Positions 26,394 to 44,111 of a stretch of 64,000 nt of DNA are shown piece after piece (the first letter of the stretch is position 1; every line of letters starts with the position of its first letter). Both the position numbers and the translations under genes were made by a program. The notes below the pieces were generated by a model. That model was not told the DNA's origin. It made no database searches and saw only the letters and a program-made list of their open reading frames with translations. The DNA is from an uncultured bacterium (GTDB lineage: Bacteria; Planctomycetota; UBA1135; GCA-002686595), in contig CALSNU010000004.1 in the NCBI GenBank assembly GCA_943787795.1, positions 731,345 to 795,344 on the forward strand, in the 5' to 3' direction.

Positions 26394-27457
26394 GCGATCA
26401 GGGAACGCAGGCGCGCGACGCGCTCCAGGGCGGCGCCCGACTCCAGGGCGCTGGTCGCAGCATCCACGCCCTCGGCGATGGTCATACACCGTCCGCAGGC
26501 CTTCAGCATGAGCGCGGCGCTGAGCAAGGTCGCCTTGCGCGCCGGCCCCGGCTCACCCGCGAGCACCGCCTGCACCAGGTCCGATGCGGACTGGCAGAGG
26601 ACAGGGTTGTCCGAGGAGCCCTGCCCATCCTCGGCCGGGCCAAAGAGCGGCAGCTCCGGCTCCGCGGCGTCCTCGAGGCCGAAGTCTGCGGGTTCCACGG
26701 TGACCGAGACCAGGTGGTTCCCGTCCAGCTCGATGCCCCGGGTCCGCTTGGTGACGAAGGGGACCACGCTGCCTTCAGGGCCCTGCAGGGCGACACCTCG
26801 TCGGTGCCCGAGGCCCTTGAGTACCTCGACCGCCGCGCCGAGCACCGGCCCGCGCTGAGCGCCAATCAACATGGCGGAGCCAGGCGGCGCGATGAGCTTC
26901 TCGAGGGTGGAGAGCGGCGTGCGGACGATCATGTCGCCGCGAACCTTGCGGAGCGAGAGGAGCGGCGGGCAGAGCCCCGCCACGGAGACGGTCGCAAAGC
27001 CCCCCTTGGTGATCCAATCCTCGGCCTCGGTGGAGTCCCAGGTCATGGAGAGCCCGAGGCCTTCGAGGACATTGGCCGCGGTCAAGCCGCGCCGGGGCGG
27101 GACACAGCGGTCCGATACGATGAGCACTCGCGCCCCGGCGGCCGCCGCGACGATCCCGGCCGCCACCTCGAGGGGCGGGATCGTGTCGTGTCCATCCTGA
27201 GGGGGAGCCACGGTCACCAGCCCGCTCATGCCCATGCAGGGGATCCGCGACTGGGCGCGAGCCGACATGGCCATGCCCATCAGCTCCTCCGTCGATACGC
27301 CCTTCCAGCGCAGGGTCACGAGGAACGAGGCGACCGTCGCGTCACTCTCGGACCCGCTCAGGATCGCCGTGAAGGCCTGGGCCGCCTCTTCTCGGGAGAG
27401 GTTGCGAGGGGGCTTCGGGCCTGTCCCGAAGGAACGCATGAGGCGGCGGAGGACCAT
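26390..27457 (-). CDS. Glycosyltransferase family 3 protein, TrpD-like/YbiB-like
   Basis: LSREEA..AF..IL, FLVTLRWKG..EEL N-domain, RTPLSTLEKL; lacks the TrpD GTGGD motif. Confidence 0.75.
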   Translation of the reverse strand: MVLRRLMRSFGTGPKPPRNLSREEAAQAFTAILSGSESDATVASFLVTLRWKGVSTEELMGMAMSARAQSRIPCMGMSGLVTVAPPQDGHDTIPPLEVAAGIVAAAAGARVLIVSDRCVPPRRGLTAANVLEGLGLSMTWDSTEAEDWITKGGFATVSVAGLCPPLLSLRKVRGDMIVRTPLSTLEKLIAPPGSAMLIGAQRGPVLGAAVEVLKGLGHRRGVALQGPEGSVVPFVTKRTRGIELDGNHLVSVTVEPADFGLEDAAEPELPLFGPAEDGQGSSDNPVLCQSASDLVQAVLAGEPGPARKATLLSAALMLKACGRCMTIAEGVDAATSALESGAALERVARLRSLIA

Positions 27458-27572: not shown

Positions 27573-29069
27573 TCAGGCTCCGGCGGTCTGCTCGGTGTTC
27601 TCTGACTCCTCAGACTCCTCGGGGTCCTCCGACTCTTCGGGATCCTCGGGATCCTCGGGGTCCTCGTTGGCTTCCGGCTCCTCGCCGCCGGATTCTTCGA
27701 TCACCGGCTCCTCACCAGCGTCCTCCGCGGGCTCTTCCTCCGGCGCATCCGCCGGCGCCTCTTCACCAGAGTCCATCCTCTCCGCCGGCGCCAGGGCGGT
27801 CTCCGGACGCGGTCGAATGTGTGCGAAGAACATCTCGGCCTGCTTGTCGTAGACGATCTCGCCGTCGACGATCGCCCACTGGACAAAGGTCTGATAGTGG
27901 AGCAGGTCGCCGTCCGTGACGATCAGGTCGGCGTCCTTGCCCACCTCGATCGAACCGATCCGGTAGTCCACACCGAGCACCCGGGCGGCCTCGATCGTGA
28001 TCGAGCGCAGTCCCGCGAGCTGGGGCAGTCCACCGCGGATCGCGAAGCCCGCCTCGATGGGAAGGTGGAGCAGGTCCTGTCCAACGATGCCACCCAGCGA
28101 GATACCACGTGAGGCCGGGACGACCACCACGTTGACGCCGTGGCTGTAGAGCGTCGCGGCGTTCTCGATGCTCGACCCGCCCTCGCGGAGCAGCGACTCG
28201 TCCTTCGGACGGCGCGTTCTGGGAGTCACGATCGCCGTGGCCCCGGCGCGTCCGAGCTCGTCCGCGACGGTCCAGCCCTCACGGCAGCCGTTGATGATCG
28301 GGCGGAAGCCGTAGCGCTGGGCGAGTTGCGCGATCTCCAGCAGGTCCGTGCGATCGTCTGCGTTGAAGCGCGGCCTCACCTCACCCCGCAGGATCCGCAG
28401 GGACTTCTGGTCGACGCCCTTCTTGGACGGCTCCTTGGCCTCCTTGTTGGACTTCTTCTCCTGCTCCCAGGCGCGGTAGGCGCGGATGTAGTCCGCCGCC
28501 CCCTTCAGGTCGCCCTCGACCTTCAGCTGCCCCTGGGGGTTGCCGTTGGAGTAGCTCATGGTCTCGAACGCCGAGCTGCTGACGACGAGGCCGTCCACGT
28601 GCCCGCGCTTCAGCTTCGCCACCGAGTTGCCGTCGACGGCGGTGGTGATGCCCGCCGCGAGCGCGAGGGTCATGTTCTGGTTGTAGGGGTCGACCGAGTC
28701 GTCGAGGTTCCCGCTGCTGCCGAAGAGCCCGAAGGAGCCGACGGCGATCAGGCCAGGGTAGACCCGCATCCCGGAGACGTCGACAACCTCGGCGTCCTCA
28801 GGGACATCGACGTCATAGCCGAAGGCGCCGATCTTGCCGTCGCGGACGAGGATGGTCGCATCACGGAGGACGCCACCGAGGCCGGTGTGGATCTCTCCGC
28901 CGACGAGGGCCAGGACCTCCTCCTTGTCCTCTTCAGCCTCAGCCTCCTCGGCGGGCTCATCGTCGATCGAGACGTTCGCCAGCGCGGTGGGCGCGAGAAA
29001 CAGGGAGGCCGCCATGAGGAGCCACGTGGGCCGCGAGGTGCGGCGCTGCTGGTTGGGTCGGAGGTGCAT
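27573..29069 (-). CDS. Secreted amidohydrolase-fold protein, metal ligands degenerate; acidic C-terminal tail (array gene 11)
   Basis: ATG 29069 (TGATG overlap); PGLIAVGSFG instead of HxH; GSIEVGKDADLIVTDGD. Confidence 0.85.
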   Translation of the reverse strand: MHLRPNQQRRTSRPTWLLMAASLFLAPTALANVSIDDEPAEEAEAEEDKEEVLALVGGEIHTGLGGVLRDATILVRDGKIGAFGYDVDVPEDAEVVDVSGMRVYPGLIAVGSFGLFGSSGNLDDSVDPYNQNMTLALAAGITTAVDGNSVAKLKRGHVDGLVVSSSAFETMSYSNGNPQGQLKVEGDLKGAADYIRAYRAWEQEKKSNKEAKEPSKKGVDQKSLRILRGEVRPRFNADDRTDLLEIAQLAQRYGFRPIINGCREGWTVADELGRAGATAIVTPRTRRPKDESLLREGGSSIENAATLYSHGVNVVVVPASRGISLGGIVGQDLLHLPIEAGFAIRGGLPQLAGLRSITIEAARVLGVDYRIGSIEVGKDADLIVTDGDLLHYQTFVQWAIVDGEIVYDKQAEMFFAHIRPRPETALAPAERMDSGEEAPADAPEEEPAEDAGEEPVIEESGGEEPEANEDPEDPEDPEESEDPEESEESENTEQTAGA

Positions 29070-30298
29070 CACTGGTCCATGTCTCCGCTGACGAACTTGC
29101 CGTCGAGCATGACGGCGTCGAGCTTGGTGTCCGGCTGGAAGGGGTCGCCGGAGAAGATGAGGAGGTTGGCGCGCTTGCCCTCGGAGAGGCTCCCGAGCCG
29201 GTCGCCCAGCCCCATGAAGGTGGCGGGGTTGTGGGTGATCGCGCGGACGGCGGCCTTGCGGTCGAGCCCGGCGCCGATCATCACACCCACGTCCTCGAGG
29301 AACGACTCGAAGCCGGCCTTGGAGTCCGTGCGGGGCAGCAGGACGAGCTTGGCGCCTGCGCGCTCGAACTCGGCCGGCAGGTTCCGCTGGCGAAGCGTGC
29401 CGGGGACGAGGGTGATCAGCGGCTCCATGAGCACGAAGCACCCGCGCTCACCGACCTTGTCGGCGACGTGGAAGACGTCGATGTCCCGCGTGAGCGGGAC
29501 GCGCAGGTGCCACTCGAACTCCTCGTCGCCGATGGCATCGATCAGGTGCTCGTAGCTCGCGGCGTTCCGGATGGAGACCAGCGCGCGGAGCTTCCCCTCG
29601 CGAAGGTCGAAGAACGGCTGCACCCGGGGGTCCGCGGGGGGCGGGACGAAGGTCTCCTTCGACTTCGACTTGGACGAGGACTTCTTCTTGTCCCCCTTCG
29701 CCTTGGCCTGGGCCTTGTCGAACTTCTCGCGCTCCTTCTCGACCTTCTTGAGATGGTCATCCGCCTTCTTGAAGCCGTCGCGCAGGTTGCGCTTTGCGCT
29801 GCTGTTGTTGCGCATGACGACCTTCAGGTAGACGCCGTCCTCGACGATCATCTCCTCGGCGGAGTCGCCCTTGGGGCGGACCGCGACCGCCTGGCCGGGG
29901 ATACCCTGGCCGGCGGGGTACTGCCCCACCGTGGTGACACCGTTCTCGAAGAAGGCCTTGTACGCGGCCGACGGGTAGAGCTCCGCGGACGCCATGACCT
30001 GGGGCCGTGAGTCGTTGTAGCCGCCCCCCGACATGCCGACGCGAGAGTAAGGGTTCACGAGGCCAGGCATGACGACCTGTCCCTCCTCGAGCTCGATCAC
30101 GGGGATGCCGCGCTCGACCGGGAGGTCCTGGCCCATGGTGACGATCTCGCCGTCTTCGACGAGGATCACGGCGTGCTCCATGACCTCCCCGTCGCCGAGT
30201 TCGACGCGGGGGGCCTTGATCACGAATAGATCTCCCTGGACCGGCGCAGCGGGAGCCGCGGCGATCGGGCCGAGGAGGAGGAGGGGTGAGAGGATCAT
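29069..30298 (-). CDS. Secreted amidohydrolase-fold protein, HxH lost (array gene 10)
   Basis: ATG 30298; signal peptide; PGLVNPYSRVG; GSLSEGKRANLLIFSGDP. Confidence 0.85.
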   Translation of the reverse strand: MILSPLLLLGPIAAAPAAPVQGDLFVIKAPRVELGDGEVMEHAVILVEDGEIVTMGQDLPVERGIPVIELEEGQVVMPGLVNPYSRVGMSGGGYNDSRPQVMASAELYPSAAYKAFFENGVTTVGQYPAGQGIPGQAVAVRPKGDSAEEMIVEDGVYLKVVMRNNSSAKRNLRDGFKKADDHLKKVEKEREKFDKAQAKAKGDKKKSSSKSKSKETFVPPPADPRVQPFFDLREGKLRALVSIRNAASYEHLIDAIGDEEFEWHLRVPLTRDIDVFHVADKVGERGCFVLMEPLITLVPGTLRQRNLPAEFERAGAKLVLLPRTDSKAGFESFLEDVGVMIGAGLDRKAAVRAITHNPATFMGLGDRLGSLSEGKRANLLIFSGDPFQPDTKLDAVMLDGKFVSGDMDQ

Positions 30299-30353
30299 GT
30301 GAGGTAGGTCCTGCGGGACACGCGACACTGCGCCGGCGTCCCGAGGTGTTCTG

Positions 30354-31553
30354 CTAGAAGAGCTGACCGTCGCGGTCGCGGTCGTACTCGAGGTCTCCGT
30401 CGATGAAGACGGAGCGCACGGAGGAGCGGGGGTCGAGCGGATCGCCGTCCCAGAGGACGACGTCCGCGTCCTTACCCACCTCGAGGCTTCCGACTCGATG
30501 GGCAAGGTTGAAGGAGAGAGCCGGGTGGATCGTGATCGCCCGGAGCATCTGATAGGCGTCCGCGCCGTAGCGCGCACTCATCGAGCCCTGGAGGAAGAAG
30601 TACTCCTCCGCGATCACGCCCGAGTCCGTGTTGAGGGAGAAGAGCGGCACGCCGGCGTCGACGAACTCCGCCGCGGTCCCGACGATCCGACCCTCTCGGC
30701 TGGAGTAGTAGTCGATGGTGCGCGGCCCGTGGTTCACCGGGATATCGATGGCTGCGAGCGCCGGGGCGACCTTCCACCCATCGAAGCTCCCGTGGGAGAT
30801 CACGGCGACGGCGCCGTACTTCACCTTCCACATGCGCGCAGTGTTCACTACGCCCTCGCTGCCGGCGGTGTGGATCAGCACGGGCAGGTCCCCGGAGACC
30901 ACCCTGGAGAGGTTCTCCAGCGCAGGGTCTCGTCGGCCCTGGCGGTAGGCTCCCAGGGCACGGTCCGCCACGTCGCGCAGGTTCCACTCCATCCCAGCGC
31001 GGGTGACGCCCACGTCCGTCGAGTTACGGCGCTGTGGGTTCGAGTCCTGGGCGACCTTGAGGCCCCCCGGATCTCGCACGACGCTGGCCTGGAAGCCGCC
31101 AGTGGAGCGTGACTTGTAGACGAGGCCGAAGCCGCCCATGTTGGACCCGCTCCCCGGGATCCCAAAGAGCGTGGTCACGCCGCCGGCGCGCCCCACCTCG
31201 ATCACGCCGTTCCCCGGGCGGTAGGACGGCGCAGCGCGGAGCTCAGGGTTCACGGCGTGGACCGTGTCGTTGATGTCCCCGAAGCCGCCGCTGTGGATGT
31301 GGGTGTGCAGATCGACGAAGCCAGGCACGGCCCATGTGTCCAGCGCAACCACGGGTGCGGGGCCCCCTTCGCGGGCCTCGATCGGCCCCGCGTAGGTGAT
31401 CTTGCCGTCCTCGAGCACGATCATCCCCGGAGAGTGGATCGCGTCGGCTTCGTTCATGGTGAGCACCTTGCCCACGTGCAGAACGACGGTGTCCAGCGCC
31501 GTCACCGGCGAGGCCAGGGCAGGCACAATCAGGGCGGCCAGGGAGTGCAGCAT
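30354..31553 (-). CDS. Secreted amidohydrolase, intact metal site (array gene 9)
   Basis: DLHTH, LKVAQ, IHTA, SHGS, NTD; TGATG overlap (ATG 31559 alternative). Confidence 0.92.
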   Translation of the reverse strand: MLHSLAALIVPALASPVTALDTVVLHVGKVLTMNEADAIHSPGMIVLEDGKITYAGPIEAREGGPAPVVALDTWAVPGFVDLHTHIHSGGFGDINDTVHAVNPELRAAPSYRPGNGVIEVGRAGGVTTLFGIPGSGSNMGGFGLVYKSRSTGGFQASVVRDPGGLKVAQDSNPQRRNSTDVGVTRAGMEWNLRDVADRALGAYRQGRRDPALENLSRVVSGDLPVLIHTAGSEGVVNTARMWKVKYGAVAVISHGSFDGWKVAPALAAIDIPVNHGPRTIDYYSSREGRIVGTAAEFVDAGVPLFSLNTDSGVIAEEYFFLQGSMSARYGADAYQMLRAITIHPALSFNLAHRVGSLEVGKDADVVLWDGDPLDPRSSVRSVFIDGDLEYDRDRDGQLF

Positions 31554-32800
31554 CACCATGCCCGGCCCCCGATCTCGGCGTCGTAGACCTTCTCGCCGTT
31601 GACCCAGACCGCGTCGAAGTGCGTCCGAGGATCGATCGGGTCGCCGTTGCAGACGAGGATGTCCGCGTGCTTGCCCGGCTCGAGGCTGCCGACTCGGTCG
31701 GCGATGCCCGACGTGCGCGCAGGAATGATCGTGACCCCACGGAGCCCCTGGGCCCGGTCGTTCCGGAGCCCATAGCGCACCCCCATGGCGGCCTGCGTCG
31801 TGAGCTCTTCCTGGGGGACGACGGGCGCGTCGGTGTTGAAGCCGATGTCGACCATGCCCTGCTCCTGGAAGCCCCAGGCGGTGCCCTCGATGCGCCCGTC
31901 CGTATCGAAGCGCGGGGGGCGGGGGGCCATGATCTCGCGCGGCCCCAGGATCGCACCGACGCCGAACTCCTTGGCCAGCGGCGTGGTGAGGTAGCTGTCG
32001 AAGGACCCGTGGTCGATGTAGGTCGGCAGGCCGAAGTCCCGCGCCAGCATCGTGATCGTCATCAGCACCAGCTGGTAGTACTGCGTGTGGGTCGAGACCT
32101 GGGTGTCGCCGGCATACAGGAAGCGGAAGATGTCCAGCTCGAGCTCACGCTCGGGCTTGTCCCCCTCCCCCTCGAGGTAGGCGTCCCACGCCTTGGCATA
32201 GGCCTGTCCGCGGCGGAGCCGGAACCGCAGCCCGTAGTTCATGAGGATGCGGCCCATGCCGTAGCCCCAGCGCGTCGGGTTATCGCCCTGGGCGATCTTC
32301 AGGGACCCGGGGTCGCGCAGCAGCGCCTCCTCGTAGCCGTCGATCCCGAGCTTCATGAGGACGCCGGTGCCCCCCATGTTGGTGCCCGAGCCAGGGATGA
32401 AGAGGATCGTCGTCACCCCTGCGGCGAGGGGCTTCTCCAAGTCGGAGTTGTTCGGGATGACCGCGGGCGACACGCGCAGCTCGGAGTTGAGCTGGTAGAC
32501 CATGTCGTTGATGTCGCCGCGCGAACCGCCCACGTGGCTGTGCAGGTCCACGAAGCCGGGCGCCAGCCACCGGTCGCCGTAGTCGATGACCTCGGCCCCC
32601 TCGGGGATCTCCACCGAGCCGGCAGGACCGATGGCCTCGATCTCGCCGTCGCGCAGGACCACGACTGGGTCCAGGATGAAGCCAGGGCCCTCGTACTCAC
32701 AGGTCAGCGCCTTCGCCGCCCGCAGGACCACAGCCTCTCCCTGGACGGCCGGAGCGGCGGTCCAGAGCAGGGCACAGGTGCTGGCGACGAGGGTGATCAT
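31553..32800 (-). CDS. Secreted amidohydrolase, intact metal site (array gene 8)
   Basis: DLHSH, LKIAQ, STHTQ, DHGS, NTD. Confidence 0.92.
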   Translation of the reverse strand: MITLVASTCALLWTAAPAVQGEAVVLRAAKALTCEYEGPGFILDPVVVLRDGEIEAIGPAGSVEIPEGAEVIDYGDRWLAPGFVDLHSHVGGSRGDINDMVYQLNSELRVSPAVIPNNSDLEKPLAAGVTTILFIPGSGTNMGGTGVLMKLGIDGYEEALLRDPGSLKIAQGDNPTRWGYGMGRILMNYGLRFRLRRGQAYAKAWDAYLEGEGDKPERELELDIFRFLYAGDTQVSTHTQYYQLVLMTITMLARDFGLPTYIDHGSFDSYLTTPLAKEFGVGAILGPREIMAPRPPRFDTDGRIEGTAWGFQEQGMVDIGFNTDAPVVPQEELTTQAAMGVRYGLRNDRAQGLRGVTIIPARTSGIADRVGSLEPGKHADILVCNGDPIDPRTHFDAVWVNGEKVYDAEIGGRAW

Positions 32801-32835
32801 GGGCGCTTCAGAGGCGGCGCGGGGCCGCCGTCACC

Positions 32836-34188
32836 TCACCAGAGGCGAGGCTCCTCCTTGGTGTCGTAGACCGTCTCGCCGCTCTGCCAGACATGCTTGA
32901 CGTAGCTGCGGGGGTCGGCGGGGTCGCCGGTGATGACGATCAGGTCGGCGATCTTCCCGACCTCGATGCTGCCGACGGCGTCGCCGAGGCCGCAGGCCAT
33001 GGCGGGGACGATCGTGAGGCCGCGGACCGCGTCCATGTTCTTGTTGTCGAACCCGTAGCGGACGCCCATGGCGGCCTGGAGCTGGAGCTCCTCCTGCGGG
33101 ATCACGGGTGAGTCCGTGTTGAATCCGAGGCGGGTCGTCCCCATCTCCTGGTAGCCGGCGACGCAGCCCTGGATCTTCTCCGGGTTAGACCCCGACCAGT
33201 TGATGAAGCCGCGGGTCGGCACGTCGATGGCGCGCGGCCCGACGATCGCGAACATCTCGCGCTTCTCGACCTCGGCGCCGAGGCGCCAGGTGTCGAACGT
33301 GCCGTGGTCGATGAAGACCGGGATGCCGAGCTCGTCGTGCACCATGGTCAGCGTCATCAGCGCGACCTGGTAGATCTGCGTGTGGGTCGAGACCTGGCAC
33401 TCGTTCTTCCGCAGCGAGCGGAAGATCTCGAACTGCGGGTTGATGGTCGGCTTGGCGCCGCCGTCCTTCTCGTAGGCCTCCCACTGCTTCGCGTAGGCGA
33501 TCCCGCGCTTGAACGTGTTGCGCGTGTGCCAGTTCATGAACGACCGGTTGGGCCGCAGCATCCAGCGCTCCGGGTTGCCGGCCTGGGCCAGCTTCATGGA
33601 GCCGGGGTCGCGGATGATCGCGCGCTCGTACTCGTCGAAGCCGGTGCGCAGGAGCACGCCCTGCCCGCCGATGTTCGTGCCCGAGCCAGGGAGGTAGAGC
33701 ACCGTCGTGACCCCTGCCGCGAGGCCGACGCGCAGCAGCGGATTGCCGCTGATGACGTCGCTGGAGGCCCGGATACCCGGGTTGGTGAGGTAGACGGTGT
33801 CGTTCAGGCCGAAGGCGCCCGCCACGTGGCAGTGCAGCTCGACCAGGCCGGGCATGACCCAGTCATCGCCCGCGTCGTAGACCGAGTATCCCTCCGGGAT
33901 CTCCGTCTCCGCCGCCGAACCGACCGCCTCGATGCGCCCGTCCTTCACGAGGACGACGCCGTTGTTGACCACGGAGCGCCCCTGCCACTCGGCCGTGAGG
34001 ATCTTCGACGAGCGGATCGCGAGGCCGGGGCCACCCTCCGCGCCAGGCTTCGCCACGGCTGCGGAGTTCGCCGGCGCCGGGGCCACGCCGAGCGGGTCGT
34101 TGCCGCCCGCCGCCGCGGTGACCATGGAGAGCGCGGCCACTGTCGCGCCGGCGAGAAGAGATCGGAGGGTGATGTTTCGTTCAGACAT
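32836..34188 (-). CDS. Secreted amidohydrolase, intact metal site (array gene 7)
   Basis: ELHCH, MKLAQ, STHTQ, DHGT, NTD. Confidence 0.92.
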   Translation of the reverse strand: MSERNITLRSLLAGATVAALSMVTAAAGGNDPLGVAPAPANSAAVAKPGAEGGPGLAIRSSKILTAEWQGRSVVNNGVVLVKDGRIEAVGSAAETEIPEGYSVYDAGDDWVMPGLVELHCHVAGAFGLNDTVYLTNPGIRASSDVISGNPLLRVGLAAGVTTVLYLPGSGTNIGGQGVLLRTGFDEYERAIIRDPGSMKLAQAGNPERWMLRPNRSFMNWHTRNTFKRGIAYAKQWEAYEKDGGAKPTINPQFEIFRSLRKNECQVSTHTQIYQVALMTLTMVHDELGIPVFIDHGTFDTWRLGAEVEKREMFAIVGPRAIDVPTRGFINWSGSNPEKIQGCVAGYQEMGTTRLGFNTDSPVIPQEELQLQAAMGVRYGFDNKNMDAVRGLTIVPAMACGLGDAVGSIEVGKIADLIVITGDPADPRSYVKHVWQSGETVYDTKEEPRLW

Positions 34189-34197
34189 GGTGTTCGC

Positions 34198-35547
34198 TCA
34201 GAAGCGCCGCTCCACCTCGGCGTCGTAGACCCGCTCACCCTCCTGGAAGGTGAGGTGGACCTGCGTCCGAGGGTCAGTGGGGTCACCGGAGGTGATGATG
34301 AAGTCCGCGTCCTTGCCGGGCTCGAGGCTCCCGATCCGGTCGTGGATGCCCGCCGCGAAGGCAGGAATGATGGTGAGGCCGCGGACGTGCTCGACCGCGT
34401 CGTTCTTGAACCCGTAGCGCACGGCCATGGAGGCCTGCAAGGGCAGCGCCTCCTGACCGATCACCGGGGCATCGGTGTTGAACCCGATCAGGGTGCAGCC
34501 GCCCTCCTGGTACTTCGCCGCCATCCCGAAGATGGCGCCGTCGTTGTCGTTCACGATGAACATCCCGGGGCGGTACTCGATGTTGATGCTCGCGCTGATC
34601 TGGCGCGGGCCGAGGATCGCAGGGACGCCCGCCTTGGCGGCGAAGGGCGCGGCGCGCCAGCCGTCGAAGGAGCCGTGGTCGATGTACACGTCGAGGCCCA
34701 GGTCCTCCTTGATCATCTGCACGGTGCGCAGGACGACCTGGTAGATCTGGGTGTGGGCCGACAGCTGGGTCTGCTTGGCGTAGAGGTCGCGGAAGACCTC
34801 CCACATCGGGTCGACCTTGGGGCGCGGCCCGTCGCCGTTGCTGAAGGCCTCCCAGCGCTTGGCGTAGGCGATCCCCCGCTCGATCGTGTTGCGGGTGTTC
34901 CAGTTCATGAAGGAACGCCCGACCCCGGAGAGGTAGCTCTCCGGGTTCCCTGCCTGCGCCAACTTCAGCGAGCCCGGATTGCGGATCTCCATCCGCTCGT
35001 AGCTGTCGAAGCCCGTCTTGAGCAGGACCCCGTGACCGCCGATGTTCGTGCCTGACCCGGGGATGTAGAGCACGCTCGTCACCCCTGCCGCCCTGCCGAC
35101 GACGAAGTCCGAGTTGCCCGGCACCACCGACGTGAACGCCCGGATACCGGGGTTGGTCAGATAGACCATGTCGTTCAGATCGTTGGTGAAGAAGCTCCGC
35201 CCAGCGACGTGACTGTGGAGGTCGATCAGGCCCGGCGAGACCCAGTCTCCCGACCGATCGAGCACGTCGTGCGTGGTGGCCATCGCCTCCAGATCCACGT
35301 CGGCGCGGGGCGTGACGCTCACGATCTTCCCGTCCTCGACCACGACGGCAGCGTTGTCGATGACCTGCTGCCCTTCCATGGGCAGCACGAGGGCCTTGCC
35401 GCAGAGCACGACCAGCCCCCGCTCCACACCCGCGGCCCCGCTCTCCCCCACGTCGACTCCAACGCCGGCCCCAAAGGAGGCGGACGCCGTGGAGGCGACA
35501 GCGAGCCACGCGCAGGCGGCGGTGCGGGCGAGGGAGGCGGCGCGCAT
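34198..35547 (-). CDS. Secreted amidohydrolase, intact metal site (array gene 6)
   Basis: DLHSH, LKLAQ, SAHTQ, DHGS, NTD. Confidence 0.92.
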   Translation of the reverse strand: MRAASLARTAACAWLAVASTASASFGAGVGVDVGESGAAGVERGLVVLCGKALVLPMEGQQVIDNAAVVVEDGKIVSVTPRADVDLEAMATTHDVLDRSGDWVSPGLIDLHSHVAGRSFFTNDLNDMVYLTNPGIRAFTSVVPGNSDFVVGRAAGVTSVLYIPGSGTNIGGHGVLLKTGFDSYERMEIRNPGSLKLAQAGNPESYLSGVGRSFMNWNTRNTIERGIAYAKRWEAFSNGDGPRPKVDPMWEVFRDLYAKQTQLSAHTQIYQVVLRTVQMIKEDLGLDVYIDHGSFDGWRAAPFAAKAGVPAILGPRQISASINIEYRPGMFIVNDNDGAIFGMAAKYQEGGCTLIGFNTDAPVIGQEALPLQASMAVRYGFKNDAVEHVRGLTIIPAFAAGIHDRIGSLEPGKDADFIITSGDPTDPRTQVHLTFQEGERVYDAEVERRF

Positions 35548-35552
35548 AGGGC

Positions 35553-38513
35553 TCAGCGGACCTCTTCCCCGTTGACGAAGACCCGCTCAATGGTGGAGGA
35601 GATCTCCATGGGAGAGCCGTCGAGGATGAGGATGTCGGCGTCCTTGCCGGGCTCGATGGTCCCGACGCGGTCATCGATGCAGAGCATGTGAGCCGCATCA
35701 AAGGTCAGCGCGCGCAGGGCGGCGGAGGGCGAGAGCCCCATGGCCACGGCGCGCGCCGCGATGACGCCAAGCTCCGCGGCGCCCTCCTCGGCTTGACTCA
35801 TGAACGCGACGGGGATCCCCGCGGCCGAGAGCTGGCCGAGGCGGCTGGTGGGGTTCCCGGCGCTATCGGTCGTCGACATGCGCGAGCGAGGCACGAGCAC
35901 GCCGCTGACGCGGCCGGCGATCTGGTCCGCGACCTTGTTGGCATCGTTCGCCTCGAAGAGGATCGGACGGATCCCGTACTGCTCGAAGGCGTCGACGCAG
36001 CTGAGGATCTGGTCGTCACGGTTGACCCGTACCAGGACCGCGGCCCCACCGGACATCGCCCGGCGGAGAGGCTCCAGGTCCGGATCGATCGACGGCTTCT
36101 TGGGCATGCCCTTCGGCGTCGAGGCCCGCTTGACCTTCTCCGGGATCCGCACCGGGCGGGCAGCGACCTTGTACTCGGTCGAGACCTGCTTGAGATCGAG
36201 GGTCTCGACCCGATCCCCTTCCCACTTGGCCTCGCCCCGCAGGAAGGTCTCGACCGGCTTCTCGGCGTCGGCTTTCTCCTCCTCCTTGGACTTCTTCTTG
36301 GCCCCCTTGGGCGGCGGGTCGTTGGAGTAGATCTGCGCGAGGCTGACGGCGAGGGCGCCGTCGAGGAGGTCGACCTCGAGCGTGACGTCGTAGCCGTCTC
36401 GGCTGCCCGTGACCGGATAGAGGCCGTCGAGATACGAGGCGCGCATCGAGCCCGTGATGGACCCGTCAGCATCCTCGAGGAGCCGCAGACGGACCTTCGA
36501 GCCCTCGACGCTGGGAGAGGTGCCCTCGAAGACGCCCGTCACCGGCTTGGCCGGGTCGCGCTCCTTCTTCTTCTTTTTCTTCTTCTCCTCGTCCTTCTTC
36601 TTCTCGCCGTCTTCCTCGTCGTCCTCGTCTTCCTTCTCCTCGTCGTCCGAGGCCGGCTCGGGGGCGGGCGGGGTCCACTTGGCCATGTCGGCCTCGTACT
36701 TGGCCCACTTGGCCGCGTAGTCCTTGGCCTTCTTGAGCGTCGCGCGGACGCTCGCGCCCGACTGGGTGACGATGCTCGAGTCCCACTGGAGCATCACGCT
36801 GGCGACAGGATCGATCACGAGGCCGCCGAAGTCAGTGGCGGCGGGCTTGTAGGCGATGGAGGGGGTCACGCTGCCGCGGTCCGGGGAGGTCAGGTTCACC
36901 GAGGTGACGCCGCGCTTCGAGACCTCACGGTCCGCGTAGTCCCCCGGCTCCAGCATGCGCGTCAGGTCGAAGCGCGTGGAGAACGCGCGCCTCCCGCCGC
37001 CATTGCCGAGGTAGCCGTAGGCATCGATCATGCCAGGCATGGCCGCGGCGCCGCGCACGACCCGTGCGCCGGCGGGCCGACCCACGCGGGCCGAGACCTC
37101 GGCGATCTTGCCGTCGCGCACGAGGATCTCGCCGGGGGTGTGGACCACGCCATCCCCCACGTACAGTTCGTCCACGCTGATGACCACGGACGTGCTGGGC
37201 TTGACGCCCTCGCGCTTCGACCCGGCGAGTTCCGTCGACCAGGCCAGCTCTCCGTTCACGTAGGTGGCCAGGACGCTCGAGCTGAGGGACATGGGGTCGC
37301 CGGACATGACGACCATGTCGCCGTCTTTGCCCGGAGACAGGCTCCCCACTCGATCCTCAACGCCGAGCACCTTCGCTGCGTTCAACGTGATGCCCGAGAG
37401 CGCCGCGCCGCGGGGCATCCCGCCACGCATGGCGAGCGCCGCGCCGAAGCGCAGGTCCGGAGCGCCAAGGGACCTCGGGGCGCGGATCGCCACCTGGACG
37501 CCCTCCCCCGCCAGGCGGGAGATCGTGTCGTAGCGAGGCCACGCCGCCGTGGCTCCCTTGCCGAAGTTGTTGCCGCCGTTGTAGTCGGGCCCAGCGATCA
37601 CGGGCACGCCCGCCTCCGCGATGGCGGCGGCCATGGAGGCCGAGCGGCTCGCGCCGTCAATCACCAGGTTCATCCCGTACCGCTCCTTGAGCTCCAGCAG
37701 GGCCTGGACCTCGCCGGCCGTCTCGGCGCCCATGCGCCAGGTGGCGCCAGCCTTCATGGCCTCTGCCAGGGCGGGGCCCGCCTGCGCGCCGTACTCGGCA
37801 ACCAGGGCGTCATCACCACCAGCGAGGGCCATGAGCTCATCGACCGCGAGGACCGCGCCCATGGTCGTGGTGGGCAGCTGCGGCTTGGGGACACCGAGAC
37901 CGACGTCCACCGTCGCGGGGACGGGGGGTTCCCAGTAACCGGGGGTCCGGCGAGCCTCGGAAGAGATCGAGCCGTGGATGCCGCTGCGCTCCCGGAGGAT
38001 CCGCTCGTCGGCGCTGACCGCGCTGCCGCCTCCCGTCTTCACGACGGCTCCCTGGCCGGCGATCAGGCGACCGCGGGCGGGGGGCAGGTAGACGGTGGTG
38101 ATCCCGTTCCGCAGGGCGGAGACGATCGGCGTATACGGATCGAACTGATCGATGGCAAGCAGGGTCGGGTCCGCCGTCCTGGGACCGGCGGTCTGCTGCG
38201 TGTAGTTCGAGTCCACGGCGACCAGCCCCGGCACGATGACCGCGTCAGGACCGTGGTCGATCACCTCGGCTCCGCCGGGCACGTCGATCGTGTCAGCCGG
38301 GCCGATGGCGACGATCTTGCCGTCCTCGACCAGCACGGCGCCGTCGCGGATGAGCTCCCCCACCTCAACGAGGTGAATGGTGCCGGCCTTGACGACGACG
38401 GCGTCACCCGCCGTGGGGGTCGCGGCGGAGGTGGCGATGGGCGCGGCCGAGGCCGCGGCGGTGAACGCCGCAAGCGTGAGGGCAGCGGCTCGTAGTTTCG
38501 GGGTCATGTGCAT
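35553..38513 (-). CDS. Secreted double amidohydrolase-domain protein, both domains degenerate, with inserted domain (array gene 5)
   Basis: PGLVAVDSN and PGMIDAYGY at HxH positions; two GS/TxxPGKDxD C-terminal motifs. Confidence 0.88.
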   Translation of the reverse strand: MHMTPKLRAAALTLAAFTAAASAAPIATSAATPTAGDAVVVKAGTIHLVEVGELIRDGAVLVEDGKIVAIGPADTIDVPGGAEVIDHGPDAVIVPGLVAVDSNYTQQTAGPRTADPTLLAIDQFDPYTPIVSALRNGITTVYLPPARGRLIAGQGAVVKTGGGSAVSADERILRERSGIHGSISSEARRTPGYWEPPVPATVDVGLGVPKPQLPTTTMGAVLAVDELMALAGGDDALVAEYGAQAGPALAEAMKAGATWRMGAETAGEVQALLELKERYGMNLVIDGASRSASMAAAIAEAGVPVIAGPDYNGGNNFGKGATAAWPRYDTISRLAGEGVQVAIRAPRSLGAPDLRFGAALAMRGGMPRGAALSGITLNAAKVLGVEDRVGSLSPGKDGDMVVMSGDPMSLSSSVLATYVNGELAWSTELAGSKREGVKPSTSVVISVDELYVGDGVVHTPGEILVRDGKIAEVSARVGRPAGARVVRGAAAMPGMIDAYGYLGNGGGRRAFSTRFDLTRMLEPGDYADREVSKRGVTSVNLTSPDRGSVTPSIAYKPAATDFGGLVIDPVASVMLQWDSSIVTQSGASVRATLKKAKDYAAKWAKYEADMAKWTPPAPEPASDDEEKEDEDDEEDGEKKKDEEKKKKKKKERDPAKPVTGVFEGTSPSVEGSKVRLRLLEDADGSITGSMRASYLDGLYPVTGSRDGYDVTLEVDLLDGALAVSLAQIYSNDPPPKGAKKKSKEEEKADAEKPVETFLRGEAKWEGDRVETLDLKQVSTEYKVAARPVRIPEKVKRASTPKGMPKKPSIDPDLEPLRRAMSGGAAVLVRVNRDDQILSCVDAFEQYGIRPILFEANDANKVADQIAGRVSGVLVPRSRMSTTDSAGNPTSRLGQLSAAGIPVAFMSQAEEGAAELGVIAARAVAMGLSPSAALRALTFDAAHMLCIDDRVGTIEPGKDADILILDGSPMEISSTIERVFVNGEEVR

Positions 38514-38531
38514 GGTTTGAACCCGCAGGGA

Positions 38532-39971
38532 TCAGCCGTTGTTCTCGGTCTCGTCGTCGTCCTCGGGATCGTCGCCGTCACCCGGCCAATCCTCCTCGCC
38601 AGAGGTATCAGAGGCCGTGCCGGGGGGACGCGTACCGTCGAAGAGCTGCTTGACGCGGACGTCCTTGCTCCGGTCGTAGACGTGAGCTCCGTCGAGGATG
38701 ACGTGCTCCACGACCGAGGTGATGTCGAGCGGGTCACCGCTGAAGAGCACGACGTGTCCGTCGGTCCCCTTCGCGATCTTGCCGACGCGATCGCCGAGGC
38801 CGAGCATCTCGGCCGGCGCCGTCGTCACGGCGGCGAGGGCATCCGCGCGCGGGATGCCGTTGGCGACGCAGCGGGCCGCCTGGTACCAGAGGGAGCGGTT
38901 GGCGTCTCCCGTGGACATCAGAGCGAAGGGGATGCCCGCGTCGTGGAACACCTTGGGGACGAAGGTCTCGATGGACTCACCGGTGACCGGGTCCAGCTCT
39001 TCGTCCTCGAGCCCCGCCAGGATCACGCTGCAGCCCGACGCCTTGATCTTGGCCGCTGCCTTCCAGCATGCAGGCGCGAGGGCCAAGGTCATGGTCGCGG
39101 TGAAGCCGTTGGCCTCGGCGACGCGGAGGGCGGCATGCACGTCCATGGGCGTGGCGCACCACATGATCACGGGGAGCTTGCCCTCGATGATCCGCAGCAG
39201 CGGCTCACGCTTCTCGTCGACCTCGCCGCGCGGGACGCGCTCGAAGCCGTCAATGGTCCAACCGGAGCACGCGAGGGGCTTGCCCTTCGCGGCCTCACCC
39301 TCGAGCTCACGCCCCTGGTAGAGGGCCTCTCGGCGATCGAAGTCATCGCCGTCCTTCTGCCTCTGGACCATCTCCTCGAGATAGCGACGGAGGTCGTCGA
39401 AGGCGCCCCGCAGCGCCTGAGCCTGGGTCGCCCGGGTCTTGCCCCGCTTGGGAGCGGCGGAGATCTTCACGCCCGACCGCGGCCGCACCATCATCTGCTC
39501 GACGGTCATCCCGAAGGGCTTCACCACCATGCCCTGACCGGCGACGACGGTGTCGTTGCCCTGCTGGACGTTGATGGTCAGGATGCCCTGCCGGAGAGCC
39601 TCCTCGAAGTAGAAGTTGACCGGGTCGATCGAGTCCTTCACATCGAGGAAGGGCGCCACGTCCAGGGTCTCGTTCGGACGATCGATGCCGCGAGCGGCGT
39701 GCGCCTCCACGAAGCCCGGGAAGGCGACCATGCCCGGCTGATCGATCACGGTCGCGTCCCAGGGGATCTGGACCTCGCTCGCGGCGCCGACGGCGGTCAC
39801 GCGGCCGCCCTCGATGACGATCACGCCGTCGGGGATGGCCTCACCGGTGAGGGTGATGACGGTCCCGGCCTTGACGGCGGTCTTGTCGACCTGGGGAGCA
39901 GCGGCGGCGGAGGACGCCAGGAGGAGCGTCGCCCCGAGCGCCAGGAGAGGTTGGGAGAGAGAAGACTTCAT
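38532..39971 (-). CDS. Secreted amidohydrolase-fold protein, partly degenerate (array gene 4)
   Basis: PGFVEAHAAR (single His); later His ligands absent; GKIAKGTDGHVVLFSGDP. Confidence 0.87.
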   Translation of the reverse strand: MKSSLSQPLLALGATLLLASSAAAAPQVDKTAVKAGTVITLTGEAIPDGVIVIEGGRVTAVGAASEVQIPWDATVIDQPGMVAFPGFVEAHAARGIDRPNETLDVAPFLDVKDSIDPVNFYFEEALRQGILTINVQQGNDTVVAGQGMVVKPFGMTVEQMMVRPRSGVKISAAPKRGKTRATQAQALRGAFDDLRRYLEEMVQRQKDGDDFDRREALYQGRELEGEAAKGKPLACSGWTIDGFERVPRGEVDEKREPLLRIIEGKLPVIMWCATPMDVHAALRVAEANGFTATMTLALAPACWKAAAKIKASGCSVILAGLEDEELDPVTGESIETFVPKVFHDAGIPFALMSTGDANRSLWYQAARCVANGIPRADALAAVTTAPAEMLGLGDRVGKIAKGTDGHVVLFSGDPLDITSVVEHVILDGAHVYDRSKDVRVKQLFDGTRPPGTASDTSGEEDWPGDGDDPEDDDETENNG

Positions 39972-40042
39972 CGTGATGAGGGGGTGGTCCGAAGGTCGGG
40001 CCGGTGGGTCGTGTTCGGTTCGGGATCGCGCCGCGGGCGCGG

Positions 40043-41227
40043 TCAGCGGGGATCGAGGGCGAGGTGGCCGCTGACGAGGACGCCAACGGGTCGGGTGGTC
40101 GCCTCGAAGGGCTCACCGTTCCAGAGGATGAGGTCGGCGTCCTTGCCGGCCTCCACAGAGCCCACGCGGCCGTCAACGCCGAGCAGCTGGGCGGGGGTGA
40201 GAGTCACGGCGCGAAGCGCCTCCTCCCGAGTCAGGCCGCCGCGCATGGCGAGGCCGGCCTGCAGATCGAGCCGCGAGCCACCGTGACCGGAGAGCGCGAA
40301 CGAGACGCCGTTATCGCGGAGCACGCTCGCGCACTCCACGGACATGAGGGCACCGTCGGTGGTGCGCCCCTGGGCGGGGACCGGCGGGAGGATCACGGCG
40401 GTGTTGCTGCGCACGAGCATGGCCGGCTCGCGCCAGGCCTCCGCGCCCGCATCGATCACGAGGCGCATCTCACCGAAGCCCTCGCGCGCCATCTCCTCCT
40501 TGAGGAAAACGGCGGTCCGGATGTCCTGGGTCGCCCAGGCCTGGACGAAGACGCCCACCTTGCCGGCGAGCGCGTCGAGGAGCACCTTCTGAGACGCGTC
40601 CGGCTCCTTCGCCTGGGCAGCCTCGAAGAGCGACTTTCTCCACTCCCACTCCACACCCATGCGGGTCGTTGGGCGACGGTTGAAGAAGGAGGTCGGTCGG
40701 CCGAACGCCGAGCTGTTGCGCTGGCTCGGCTGGGAGCCGATGGCGCCGCAGATCATCGGCGCCCCTTCGACCGTACGCCCCTTCACGGAGCGGTCCCCGG
40801 CGGTCTTGAGCACCGTGCCCATGCCGCCGATGCAGTTCTGGTTGAGGGGCGTGATGAAGGCGCTCGTGACGCCCTTGCGCGCCAGGCGACCCCAGCCCGG
40901 GGAGAAGAGATCGACGCCGAACTCGGCGCTGACGAGCGGCGTGACCTCACTGGACTGTTCGACGGAGGTCGTCCCTGAGTTGAGGCGGGCGCTCGCGTCG
41001 ATCATTCCGGCCGTGACGACCGCGGCCTTGAGGGCATCGCGGGTCGCCTCGACGCCGGGCGTGATCGCGCGGATCTTCCCGCCTTCAACGACGATGAGGG
41101 CGCTCTCGTGAACCTTGCCGGTCGAGGTGTAGACCTTGTCGGCATGGATCGTCCAGCTCGTACCGTCGGCCGGCACGCTGGATCCCGAGGCCGCGACTGC
41201 GGCGGAGAGAATCAGGCTTGTGAGCAT
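40043..41227 (-). CDS. Secreted amidohydrolase-fold protein, HxH lost (array gene 3)
   Basis: AGMIDASARL; GSVEAGKDADLILWNGEP; TGATG overlap. Confidence 0.87.
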   Translation of the reverse strand: MLTSLILSAAVAASGSSVPADGTSWTIHADKVYTSTGKVHESALIVVEGGKIRAITPGVEATRDALKAAVVTAGMIDASARLNSGTTSVEQSSEVTPLVSAEFGVDLFSPGWGRLARKGVTSAFITPLNQNCIGGMGTVLKTAGDRSVKGRTVEGAPMICGAIGSQPSQRNSSAFGRPTSFFNRRPTTRMGVEWEWRKSLFEAAQAKEPDASQKVLLDALAGKVGVFVQAWATQDIRTAVFLKEEMAREGFGEMRLVIDAGAEAWREPAMLVRSNTAVILPPVPAQGRTTDGALMSVECASVLRDNGVSFALSGHGGSRLDLQAGLAMRGGLTREEALRAVTLTPAQLLGVDGRVGSVEAGKDADLILWNGEPFEATTRPVGVLVSGHLALDPR

Positions 41228-42333
41228 CACTGGTGGGCTCCGTGGGCGTGGGCTGAGTGGACGAGGTGGCCGCCCGCGTAGACGGAGTGAACTCGGCTTG
41301 TGAGGTCGGTGGGAGGACCGCTCCAGACCACGAGGTCCGCGGCCCGTCCGGTGGCGATGGTTCCGTGGGTCGCGTCAACGCCTGCGATCCGCGCGGCGTC
41401 AGCGGTCATGGCGCGCAGCGCGGCGCCGGCCTCCAGGCCTGCCCGCATGCACGCCGCGGCCTGCATCCGCATACCAAGGGGGCCCTGGCTGCCCGCGTCG
41501 GAGGTGAAGGCGAAGGGCACCTCGGCCTTTGACAGAGCCAGCGCACTCTTCACCACGTCCTTCGAGCTCGCCGGGGCGGCCTTGCTCTCGAACACGACGC
41601 CGAGGCCCGAGGCCTTGATCTCGTCCACGAGGTCGTCCGCCTCGGGCGCGCCCAGAACGGCACCCTTGAGGCCGTGCGCGGCCGCGAAGTCGAGGGCGCG
41701 GGAGACCTCCGAGCGGGTGACCGCGCGCATCATCACGGGGACCTTGCCCGCCTTGGCGTCGGCCAGGGGGCTCCCCTCGGGAGCGGTGTCGAACTGCTCG
41801 CCGAGGTGAGCGTAGAGGCCAGCGAAGCTCGTGGGTGCTGTCGAGGAGCCGAGCGCAGAGCGCGAGAGCCCGAGGGTCACCACGGCGTTCCGCTTCAGCA
41901 CCTCGCCCGCCGCGGGGGAGACGATGGCGGCTTGACCGCCGGCGATCTGCGAGCTGCCGGCCGGGAGGAGGACCGTCGTGACGCCCTCAGCGACCAGACC
42001 CTTCCAGCTGGGGCTGGTGGGGTCGAAGGCGAAGGACAGGTCCGCGGTTGGCGTCGACTTGCGCGTCCGCTCCGAGTTCTCCGAGCCTGCGCCGAGGGTC
42101 TCCCGCAGGCTGATGAACCCAGGGGCGATGTGCCCGTCGACTTCGACCACGCGGACCCCGCGCGGAGCGTTATTCGAGACGCTCTTCACGACGCCGTCCT
42201 CGACGACAACGAAGGCATCCAGGACGACCTGTCCGTCCCCGACGTGCACATGGCTCGCGCGGAGGGCGAAGGCGTCGTCCGCGGCCGTGGCGCCCAGGAG
42301 CGGCGCGGCGGCGATGAGGCAAGAAATCAGCAT
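41227..42333 (-). CDS. Secreted amidohydrolase-fold protein, HxH lost (array gene 2)
   Basis: PGFISLRET; GTIATGRAADLVVWSGPP. Confidence 0.87.
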   Translation of the reverse strand: MLISCLIAAAPLLGATAADDAFALRASHVHVGDGQVVLDAFVVVEDGVVKSVSNNAPRGVRVVEVDGHIAPGFISLRETLGAGSENSERTRKSTPTADLSFAFDPTSPSWKGLVAEGVTTVLLPAGSSQIAGGQAAIVSPAAGEVLKRNAVVTLGLSRSALGSSTAPTSFAGLYAHLGEQFDTAPEGSPLADAKAGKVPVMMRAVTRSEVSRALDFAAAHGLKGAVLGAPEADDLVDEIKASGLGVVFESKAAPASSKDVVKSALALSKAEVPFAFTSDAGSQGPLGMRMQAAACMRAGLEAGAALRAMTADAARIAGVDATHGTIATGRAADLVVWSGPPTDLTSRVHSVYAGGHLVHSAHAHGAHQ

Positions 42334-42356
42334 GTTGATGGCTCCGGCTGCGGCAA

Positions 42357-43754
42357 TCAGTTGCCCGCCTGGTGGACGACCTTGCCGCCCGAGATGGACG
42401 CGAGGACGCGTGTTGAACTGGACAGCGGGTCCCCGCTGAGAACGAGCAGGTCGGCGTGCAAGCCACGCCGGACGGAACCGACCTTCGACTGGAGGTCGAA
42501 GACGCGGGCGGGGCCCGCGGTGATCGCGTGGAACGCAGCGTCTTCGTCGAGGCCGTGCCCGACCGCCGCGGCGGCGAGCAGCGGGAGGTCGCGGGAGGCG
42601 CTCGCGGAGGTGGCGCCCGATCCGATCAGCACCTCCACACCGCGCGCGGAGAGCTCACCGGCGAGGGCGAAGCCCGGGTCCATCTCACCGACGTCGCCGC
42701 CGGGCGAGCTAGGGGCGGGCGTGACGATCACGGGGATGCCCCTCTCCGCCAACTCGTCGGCGAACAGCAGGGCGCAGCGGCCCCCCGCGATGACCATCCG
42801 CATGCGAGTGAACGGGCGCGTGACGCGGAGGAGTTCGCGCAGCTCGAGGGCCTGCTCCACATGGATGACCATGGGCACCTCGCCGCCGACGGCGCGGGCC
42901 AGCGAGGCCTTCTTGGCGTCGAACTTGGGCGGACGGGGCCGCTTGTCCTCCTTGTACTTCTTCTCCTTGACCTCTTCGCCGTCTTCCTTGGCCTCCTTGA
43001 CCTTCTTGTCGCGGGCCTTCTTGGCCTTCTTGAAGTCCTCGGTGAGCTCGGTCTCCTTCTTGGCGATCTCCTCCTCCCAGGTCTTCAGGTTGCTCTCGAA
43101 GGCGGCCGTGTCGTCGGCGTACTTCTTCGCCCCGCCCAGCGCGCTGGCAAGCCGATCGACCTGACCTACGCGAGAGACAGGGTCGAGCCCCGGGGTGTTG
43201 AGGCGGGCGGAGATGGCGGCGTCCGCGAGGACCGGCGTCGCGCCGTCGGCCCGGATGACGGCGCCGACGCCAGAGACCGAGGCCGCGCTGCCGATCTCGA
43301 CGCGCATCATCAGGACGCCGGACGCCAGCAGGTCGTCGAGCACCTCATCTTGGCCGTAGGGATCGAGGGCGTCCGTGGCCCGGCTCGCGGTGTCCACGCG
43401 ATCCGAGCGAGCGGATGAGGCGTCGACACCAGCCACCGACCACGGATCGATGAACGCGGCGCAGATGACCTCGCCTTCGATGGTCTGCGCGCCCTCGGGC
43501 GCCGCGAGGTCCTTGCCCATGGCGACGATGCGGCCATCGCGGACGAGCAGGCCCATGTTGTCCAGGGACTTGCCCGGACTCACGATGACCTTGTTGGCGC
43601 GCAGGAACAGGTCCGGGGACGCAGCCGGATCGGGTTCATCCTGGGCTGCCAGGGAAGCTGCCGAGAGCGCCGCGCCGGCGGTGAGCGCAATGCCGAGGGT
43701 GCGAAGCTTCCGCAGCGGGGAGCGGCGGTCGGAGCGCGAGGGGTAGGAACGCAT
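42357..43754 (-). CDS. Secreted amidohydrolase-fold protein, HxH lost (array gene 1)
   Basis: ATG 43754; AFIDPWSV; GSVRRGLHADLLVLSGDP; Lys/Glu-rich insertion. Confidence 0.87.
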   Translation of the reverse strand: MRSYPSRSDRRSPLRKLRTLGIALTAGAALSAASLAAQDEPDPAASPDLFLRANKVIVSPGKSLDNMGLLVRDGRIVAMGKDLAAPEGAQTIEGEVICAAFIDPWSVAGVDASSARSDRVDTASRATDALDPYGQDEVLDDLLASGVLMMRVEIGSAASVSGVGAVIRADGATPVLADAAISARLNTPGLDPVSRVGQVDRLASALGGAKKYADDTAAFESNLKTWEEEIAKKETELTEDFKKAKKARDKKVKEAKEDGEEVKEKKYKEDKRPRPPKFDAKKASLARAVGGEVPMVIHVEQALELRELLRVTRPFTRMRMVIAGGRCALLFADELAERGIPVIVTPAPSSPGGDVGEMDPGFALAGELSARGVEVLIGSGATSASASRDLPLLAAAAVGHGLDEDAAFHAITAGPARVFDLQSKVGSVRRGLHADLLVLSGDPLSSSTRVLASISGGKVVHQAGN

Positions 43755-44111
43755 GTGCTGGGTGTACGAGGGTCCTTGAGGACGTCGGAGGGAGAGAGGC
43801 CCCGACGGCATGGGCGCGCAACGCAGGAGTCCTCGGATGAGAACTCGAGAGTCCGGCGCCGCCTCATTCGATCGAGTCTTCGTCATCCTAGGCAGCGCGG
43901 GCTCTCCAGACCAGAAGTGCCGTTGCCGCTTAGTGGAGGGGCGGGAAAGACTTACGGGCTGGAGACTCCCTGCTGTTTTCGTCCCGAATCGAGGCGGTGG
44001 AGTCCCCCCCACGACGCCAGGGACCGCTCCCCGAGCCGAGCCGAGGCCCCAGGCTCCAAAGTTGGTCGATTCGTCGTTCGACGCGCGGGCAAACCGCGCT
44101 CTCCCCGCGCG

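Follow-up and report, generated by a model that had tools for sequence, protein, structure and literature searches.

A conserved planctomycete array of amidohydrolase-fold genes in which most modules lack the metal ligands

The DNA analysed here is a 64,000-nucleotide stretch (the window) of contig CALSNU010000004.1 from an uncultured marine planctomycete. It contains an array of eleven amidohydrolase-like genes, g1 to g11, on the minus strand at positions 27573..43754. The array consists of nine module types (g1, g2, g3, g4, g5a, g5b, the intact type, g10 and g11) in fixed order and under selection. Judged from alignments, the complete binuclear-metal ligand set is confined to the intact type, except for a few g2 orthologues; the other eight module types are called dead here. 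The array is real and ancient, and no description of it was found in the full-text literature searched, a search outside which most subscription journals lie. On balance, the operon probably encodes one exported periplasmic hetero-oligomeric metallo-amidohydrolase, in which eight scaffold positions would be fixed and the catalytic slots open to interchangeable paralogues.

Organization and conservation of the array

No other gene is interposed among the 11 open reading frames (ORFs). The original prediction of 11 consecutive minus-strand genes with short gaps and no interleaved transporter or regulator is borne out in coordinates and spacing. With the longest starts, the successive intergenic gaps are 23, -4, 71, 18, 5, 9, 35, -7, 55 and -4 bp, and the three predicted TGATG overlaps (g2/g3, g8/g9 and g10/g11) exist provided that ATG is the start. 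Pfam Amidohydro_1/3 is matched by all 11 proteins, g1 slightly below the gathering score, and twice by the two-domain g5, giving 12 amidohydrolase domains from 11 genes. These matches, together with AlphaFold2 (AF2) models of g4 and g5 compared by Foldseek, place the modules in the amidohydrolase superfamily fold, a TIM barrel with a small β-sandwich made from both termini. The C-terminal G-K-x-A-D motif, predicted for every gene, is approximate in g1, g2, g4 and g10. Paralogues are ~22–45% identical in local alignments. Identity among g6, g7 and g8 is 48–49%, and the dead domains have weak matches (40–97 bits), whether to one another or to the intact domains. Long charged helical inserts occur in g1, g5b and g10. 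The β4–β5 region of g5b ranges from 54 to 404 residues across orthologues, and a search of the ESM Atlas with its all-β insert gives a best score of 0.82 and no family.

A search with g7 finds matches in 40 of 41 related genomes, and in the 35 array loci from those relatives the genes present always follow the order g1-g2-g3-g4-g5-[intact]n-g10-g11. Across the class, g4 is found in 150 of 151 genomes (E 1e-30 or better), as a single match in 128 of the 150; G037 is the one genome without a match, yet its locus L032 holds g4. The full array is present even in genomes of 1.8 and 2.1 Mb (L168, L169). Such near-universal occurrence in the sampled class genomes, even in small ones, suggests that these abundant marine planctomycetes rely on the array for a core function. 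In the phylum, an intact-clade gene occurs in 61 of 201 genomes (E 1e-45 or better). Outside the class there are 47 positives, and all 40 regions examined from 39 of them contain array modules. The g4 profile is positive in 38 of the 201 genomes, all within the 61 with an intact gene, although this search, limited to eight scored candidates in each genome, overlooked known cases, G172 among them. The array is found in several planctomycete classes, including metagenome-assembled genomes (MAGs) of Phycisphaerales, Gemmataceae and Pirellula, and outside the phylum in one Aminicenantes MAG and one Armatimonadia MAG. A plasmid collection searched with g4 gives zero matches at 1e-30.

Among 87 operon loci, which are related by kinship and not independent, 67 have the complete and exact order g1-g2-g3-g4-g5a/g5b-[intact]n-g10-g11; the remaining 20 run into contig or locus ends, are split, or have spurious or broken frames. 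Gene order and dead pattern, which the original prediction proposed to check in relatives, are thus conserved, and an order that recurs in dozens of genomes is not due to chance. All eight dead modules are constant across the 67 complete arrays, and every array has at least one intact gene. The part of that pattern that varies is the intact count: 39 loci have one intact gene, 8 have two, 7 have three and 13 have four. The predicted fixed stoichiometry of four catalytic and eight scaffold domains is therefore not supported, one intact gene being the most frequent state. In an 86-sequence tree the g6, g7 and g8 types form one clade (Shimodaira–Hasegawa support, SH, 1.0) with members from this family only, and g9 is an older type common to other families of the order. 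By this tree g6–g8 are a triplication within the family, and the 4:8 ratio is a local state rather than a design, since the intact number ranges from 1 to 4 and g6–g8 derive from family-level duplication. Further duplications of the intact gene arose independently in L098, L064 and L025; with L098, L064 and the g9 type, a second intact gene has more than one origin. Within the genus, g6 is absent from L006 and g9 from L007, L008, L010 and L014. Array-type intact paralogues also stand alone in array-bearing genomes (L036, L037, L164). The four intact types differ at 27 columns fixed within each type, many of them in the post-β7 loop, which is compatible with differing substrate preference.

Natural fusions join g1+g2 (L043, L045, L047, L049, L088), g1+g2+g3 (L048, L053) and g10+g11 (L069), and in L087 g5a and g5b are naturally separate genes, each with its own leader. 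An apparent intact–g10 fusion in L167 was rejected as a frameshift in the second intact gene, and the g5 pieces of L098 look like frameshifts and are not counted as a natural split.

Metal ligands, selection and export

In alignment, g6–g9 all contain H-x-H, the β4 Lys, two more His and the β8 Asp, as predicted originally; this is the binuclear-metal ligand set (H-x-H, bridging Lys, His, His, Asp). Across 36 loci, every one of the 101 intact domains has all six ligands. Genes g1–g5, g10 and g11 lack the set, the window modules retaining 0–2 ligands, and the earlier reading that H-x-H is replaced in the eight domains of these genes is correct down to the replacement residues quoted. Ligands were mapped by profile–profile alignment of 65–80 sequences per group (L001–L004 excluded as near-identical); the mapping is less certain at the last two positions, with low posterior in several groups. 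Among the dead groups, four or more ligands are found in g2 orthologues alone (6 of 69), with all six in three of them (L033, L066, L074) and five in two more; the g1, g3, g4, g5a, g5b, g10 and g11 groups contain no such sequence. His1 is present in 67 and Lys in 64 of 76 g4 orthologues. The retention of His1 and Lys by g4, and of five or six ligands by some g2, suggests that, after duplication, ligand loss proceeded one position at a time. No consistent set of alternative metal ligands, which the original prediction had named as a check, emerges from this mapping in any dead group. Residues at the ligand positions are highly variable inside each dead group, and strongly conserved residues peculiar to the group lie elsewhere.

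The ratio of nonsynonymous to synonymous substitution (dN/dS; Nei-Gojobori, 15 pairs, six same-genus genomes) is 0.065–0.145 for dead genes and 0.047–0.059 for intact genes, with a highest value of 0.22 in any pair. The dead genes, for which this comparison had also been proposed, are under purifying selection and are not decaying. Apart from locus ends, 2 of 87 loci (L087, L098) have broken frames, as does L167 of a later batch; the breaks affect intact and dead genes alike, which suggests assembly errors. The dead paralogues thus form a fixed set under purifying selection, as in pseudoenzyme-rich hetero-oligomers.

By a hydropathy heuristic, hydrophobic leaders are present in 146 of 159 intact rows, and in 22/23 for g1, 53/56 for g2, 68/69 for g3, 71/73 for g4, 74/78 for g5a, 57/58 for g10 and 45/51 for g11. 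These counts exclude rows in which the first ligand could not be placed, g1 being reduced most. Several leaders (g2, g3, g8, g9, g10) have no basic n-region. The array modules are probably exported. The individual genes are listed in Table 1.

Table 1. Genes and modules of the array in the window
Feature	Position	Strand	Description
g1	42357..43754	-	Dead amidohydrolase module; leader and K/E-rich helical insert; 0/6 ligands
g2	41227..42333	-	Dead in the window, Asp alone retained; orthologues L033, L066 and L074 have the full ligand set
g3	40043..41230	-	Dead module; conserved post-β4 Arg motif retained
g4	38532..39971	-	Dead module; His1 and Lys retained; AF2 predicted local distance difference test (pLDDT) 93; top fold match 3OOQ
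g5	35553..38513	-	Two dead domains: g5a ~37218-38513, g5b ~35553-37217
g5b insert	36180..36536	-	~120-residue all-β insert; acidic and Lys-rich linkers on either side
g6	34198..35547	-	Intact amidohydrolase; H111, H113, K195, H265, H291, D359
g7	32836..34188	-	Intact amidohydrolase; 49% identity to g6
g8	31553..32800	-	Intact amidohydrolase; nearest PDB sequence 3OOQ, E 9e-41
g9	30354..31559	-	Intact amidohydrolase; older paralogue type, 32-37% to g6-g8
g10	29069..30298	-	Dead module; Lys and perhaps Asp retained; Lys-rich insert
g11	27573..29072	-	Dead module; acidic tails at N- and C-terminus

A candidate periplasmic complex and its alternatives

The closest structure of both intact and dead modules is PDB entry 3OOQ, by sequence (profile E 4e-84) and by fold for the g4 and g5 models (Foldseek template-modelling (TM) score 0.84 by target for g4), and full-length best matches place the modules in a 3OOQ-like clade. 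The entry has 10 chains. It is listed as dihedral in a benchmark of 10–30-chain assemblies, as given in a preprint (bioRxiv 10.64898/2026.08.06.736029), and 10 chains with such a listing make D5 symmetry probable. The gene fusions and the oligomeric state of the closest structure favour a complex, and the array product is possibly a pseudo-D5 decamer.

The ancestor may have been a cytoplasmic homo-oligomer like 3OOQ. Export and repeated duplication would then have specialised each copy to one particle position, and most copies would have lost catalysis one at a time, with g4 and g2 now part-way. The dead modules would set the architecture and probably control the entry or placement of a large substrate, and the intact gene would supply the subunits for the catalytic slot or slots. 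A retained decamer would have two such slots (8 + 2); in genomes with one intact gene, that single gene would fill both, and in lineages with two to four intact paralogues, the host included, these would be isoforms of differing specificity. We offer tentatively the most elaborate form of this proposal, a compartment-like periplasmic particle with about ten positions all occupied by different gene products, eight of them pseudoenzymes, and with exchangeable catalytic cartridges, four in this host. The chemistry is most likely binuclear Zn-type amide hydrolysis in the periplasm, of a peptide or an N-acyl amino acid or amide, a guess based on the ligand set and on distant relatives among peptidases and N-acyl amide hydrolases.

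Several observations weigh against the single particle. G027, a 91% complete genome of the same taxonomic order, has no g7 match. In G223 and G205, g1-g5 and intact-g10-g11 lie at separate loci, so one transcript is not required. Both g5 domains fold well in the AF2 model, but their mutual placement is not fixed (predicted TM score, pTM, 0.47). Nine types do not map simply on ten positions with one intact gene, and three trimers or a nine-membered ring fit nine types equally. The deep nodes of the trees (FastTree, 209 domains; IQ-TREE, 99 domains) are not resolved and long-branch attraction is likely, which leaves the path from a homo-oligomer to nine types hypothetical. Among the flanking ORFs there is no conserved tenth gene, none being common beyond the class, and the context therefore names no substrate. 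A complex prediction for g9+g10 says nothing about binding either way (score 0.00, the mark being 0.32, with alignments of 76 rows each and unfolded controls). Trees and profile–profile scores do not distinguish descent of the dead modules from the dead partner of a pair from three repeats of a triple.

The last point bears on an unlikely, though by no means far-fetched, alternative in which the modules form separate hetero-dimers or hetero-trimers (e.g. g1-g2-g3, g4-g5a-g5b and intact-g10-g11), each derived from the widespread intact+dead pair or triple and acting in one pathway. Pairs and triples do exist alone, also in the host genome (L038, L039), the natural operon split falls between g5 and the intact gene, and the partial ligand retention in g2 and g4 would give three blocks of one intact-type and two dead modules. 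However, in most genomes two of these blocks would lack an active site, g4 is always accompanied by an intact gene (38 of 38 phylum genomes), and profile comparisons reveal no clear three-fold repeat. We consider it quite improbable that the dead modules work independently of each other, be it as binding proteins, sensors or carriers of the periplasm or as enzymes with a new, metal-free chemistry. Their own conserved polar residues and their inserts, such as the β insert of g5b, would suit such roles, but the wide variation at the ligand positions within each group is unlike a conserved pocket, the flanking ORFs include no linked transporter, receptor or regulator, and it would be unusual for independent proteins to occur all or none as eight, in fixed order and with fusions.

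A structural polymer or envelope-associated lattice with secondary catalysis is a very improbable reading. The near-universal and mostly single-match occurrence in the class, small genomes included, the long charged helical inserts of g1, g5b and g10, and the existence of structural pseudoenzymes of amidohydrolase fold (CRMPs) are in its favour; yet every complete array retains an intact gene, whose ligands do not vary, and apart from the leaders no sign of a repeat, an anchor or a membrane segment was seen. Recent tandem amplification decaying to pseudogenes is refuted by dN/dS (0.22 at most), conserved order and the rarity of broken frames, together with the low identity of the paralogues and the finding that most module positions form their own clades across lineages, even though the dead genes evolve somewhat faster than the intact ones.

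Neighbouring genes, relatives and known systems

Directly downstream of g11 lies a TrpD/YbiB-like glycosyltransferase-family-3 gene (26390-27457, minus strand), followed here by ppx; a gene of the same family occupies this place in 25 loci. A divergent ORF upstream of g1 (~44100-44708, plus strand, inside ORF 43755-44708) belongs to no Pfam or NCBIfam family. The ORF in the equivalent position of L009 shares 44% identity with it and belongs to a cluster found at 17 loci of the host family. Further away, a dynamin-like GTPase (46725-48959, plus strand) and a P-loop ATPase (49501-51009, minus strand) have weak, below-cut-off similarity to the anti-phage model NF053860. A promoter and terminator scan yields nothing exceeding shuffles. 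Coverage of the stretch and its flanks by RNA contigs from four metatranscriptomes is thin, and these contigs are possibly of DNA origin.

In the sample, the clade occurs in three architectures: solo intact genes, mostly in Bacillota and archaea; intact+dead pairs and triples, some fused, in Bacteroidota, Acidobacteriota, Gemmatimonadota, Glaciecola and Aminicenantes, as well as at L038 and L039; and the nine-type array. Leaders are found in 41 of 50 members of pairs but are rare among solo genes (4 of 44). The pairs and triples, of which no description was found in the literature searched, have one intact gene beside its dead partner or partners and carry leaders; they comprise two or three modules against nine to twelve in the array. 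In the host genome, L038 (C4 ~252.7-255.2 kb) is a second locus with an intact and a dead gene, both with leaders, and L039 (C3 ~489-493.8 kb) contains a dead domain fused to a near-intact one (His4 to Gln) followed by another dead gene, a layout of the L134 type. Next to solo relatives in Bacillota (L094, L102, L120, L127, L150, L151, L153, L158), tsaE and tsaB/rimI-like genes are often found, with no link to the array. The analysis of the host locus adds the extreme of four catalytic genes, the varying intact count beside a constant dead set, g2 orthologues that are still intact, and a natural split as well as fusions. Forms with one, two or three, and nine kinds of module are all still extant, the first of them homomeric, with g2 and g4 in mid-loss, making the passage from homomer to obligate heteromer with dead subunits a testable question. 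In the most elaborate form of the proposal, the series from solo through pair and triple to nine types would record a stepwise change from a homo- to an all-different hetero-oligomer, and the array would encode a core machine of a whole planctomycete class.

Among known structures, 3OOQ (Thermotoga maritima MSB8, from structural genomics, with a title naming no function) has the same six ligand positions as the array modules in alignment, but it is a homo-oligomer from a single gene, whereas the array has nine leader-bearing module types, eight of them dead. The nearest characterised enzymes (E 1e-17 to 1e-21) are the Arg/Lys carboxypeptidase Cc2672 (3MTW), the Xaa-Pro dipeptidases (2QS8, 3FEQ) and the ochratoxin amidohydrolase ADH3 (8IHQ). 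They share fold and ligand type with the array and many have 8 chains per entry; they are homo-oligomers, the matches are confined to the termini, and their substrates are not transferable. No NCBIfam family (Xaa-Pro dipeptidase NF051886, HutI, PhnM and others) is matched at cut-off, the best score being 84 bits against 500 for NF051886. CRMPs, the dihydropyrimidinase-related proteins, have the amidohydrolase fold and weak N-terminal matches to the array. They have lost the metal ligands and oligomerise as pseudoenzymes with a structural role. Unlike the array, they are animal, cytosolic and tetrameric proteins of another branch of the superfamily.

The plastid and cyanobacterial ClpP/ClpR core, the 20S proteasome, the RNA exosome core and CCT/TRiC are rings of paralogous subunits in fixed positions, several of which are catalytically dead. 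Their folds are unrelated and they are cytoplasmic or organellar; the analogy is one of logic only. No such paralogue-ring machine was found for the amidohydrolase superfamily in the literature searched. If the proposed complex is real, the array would be a bacterial counterpart of the proteasome, CCT and ClpPR, acting outside the cytoplasm.

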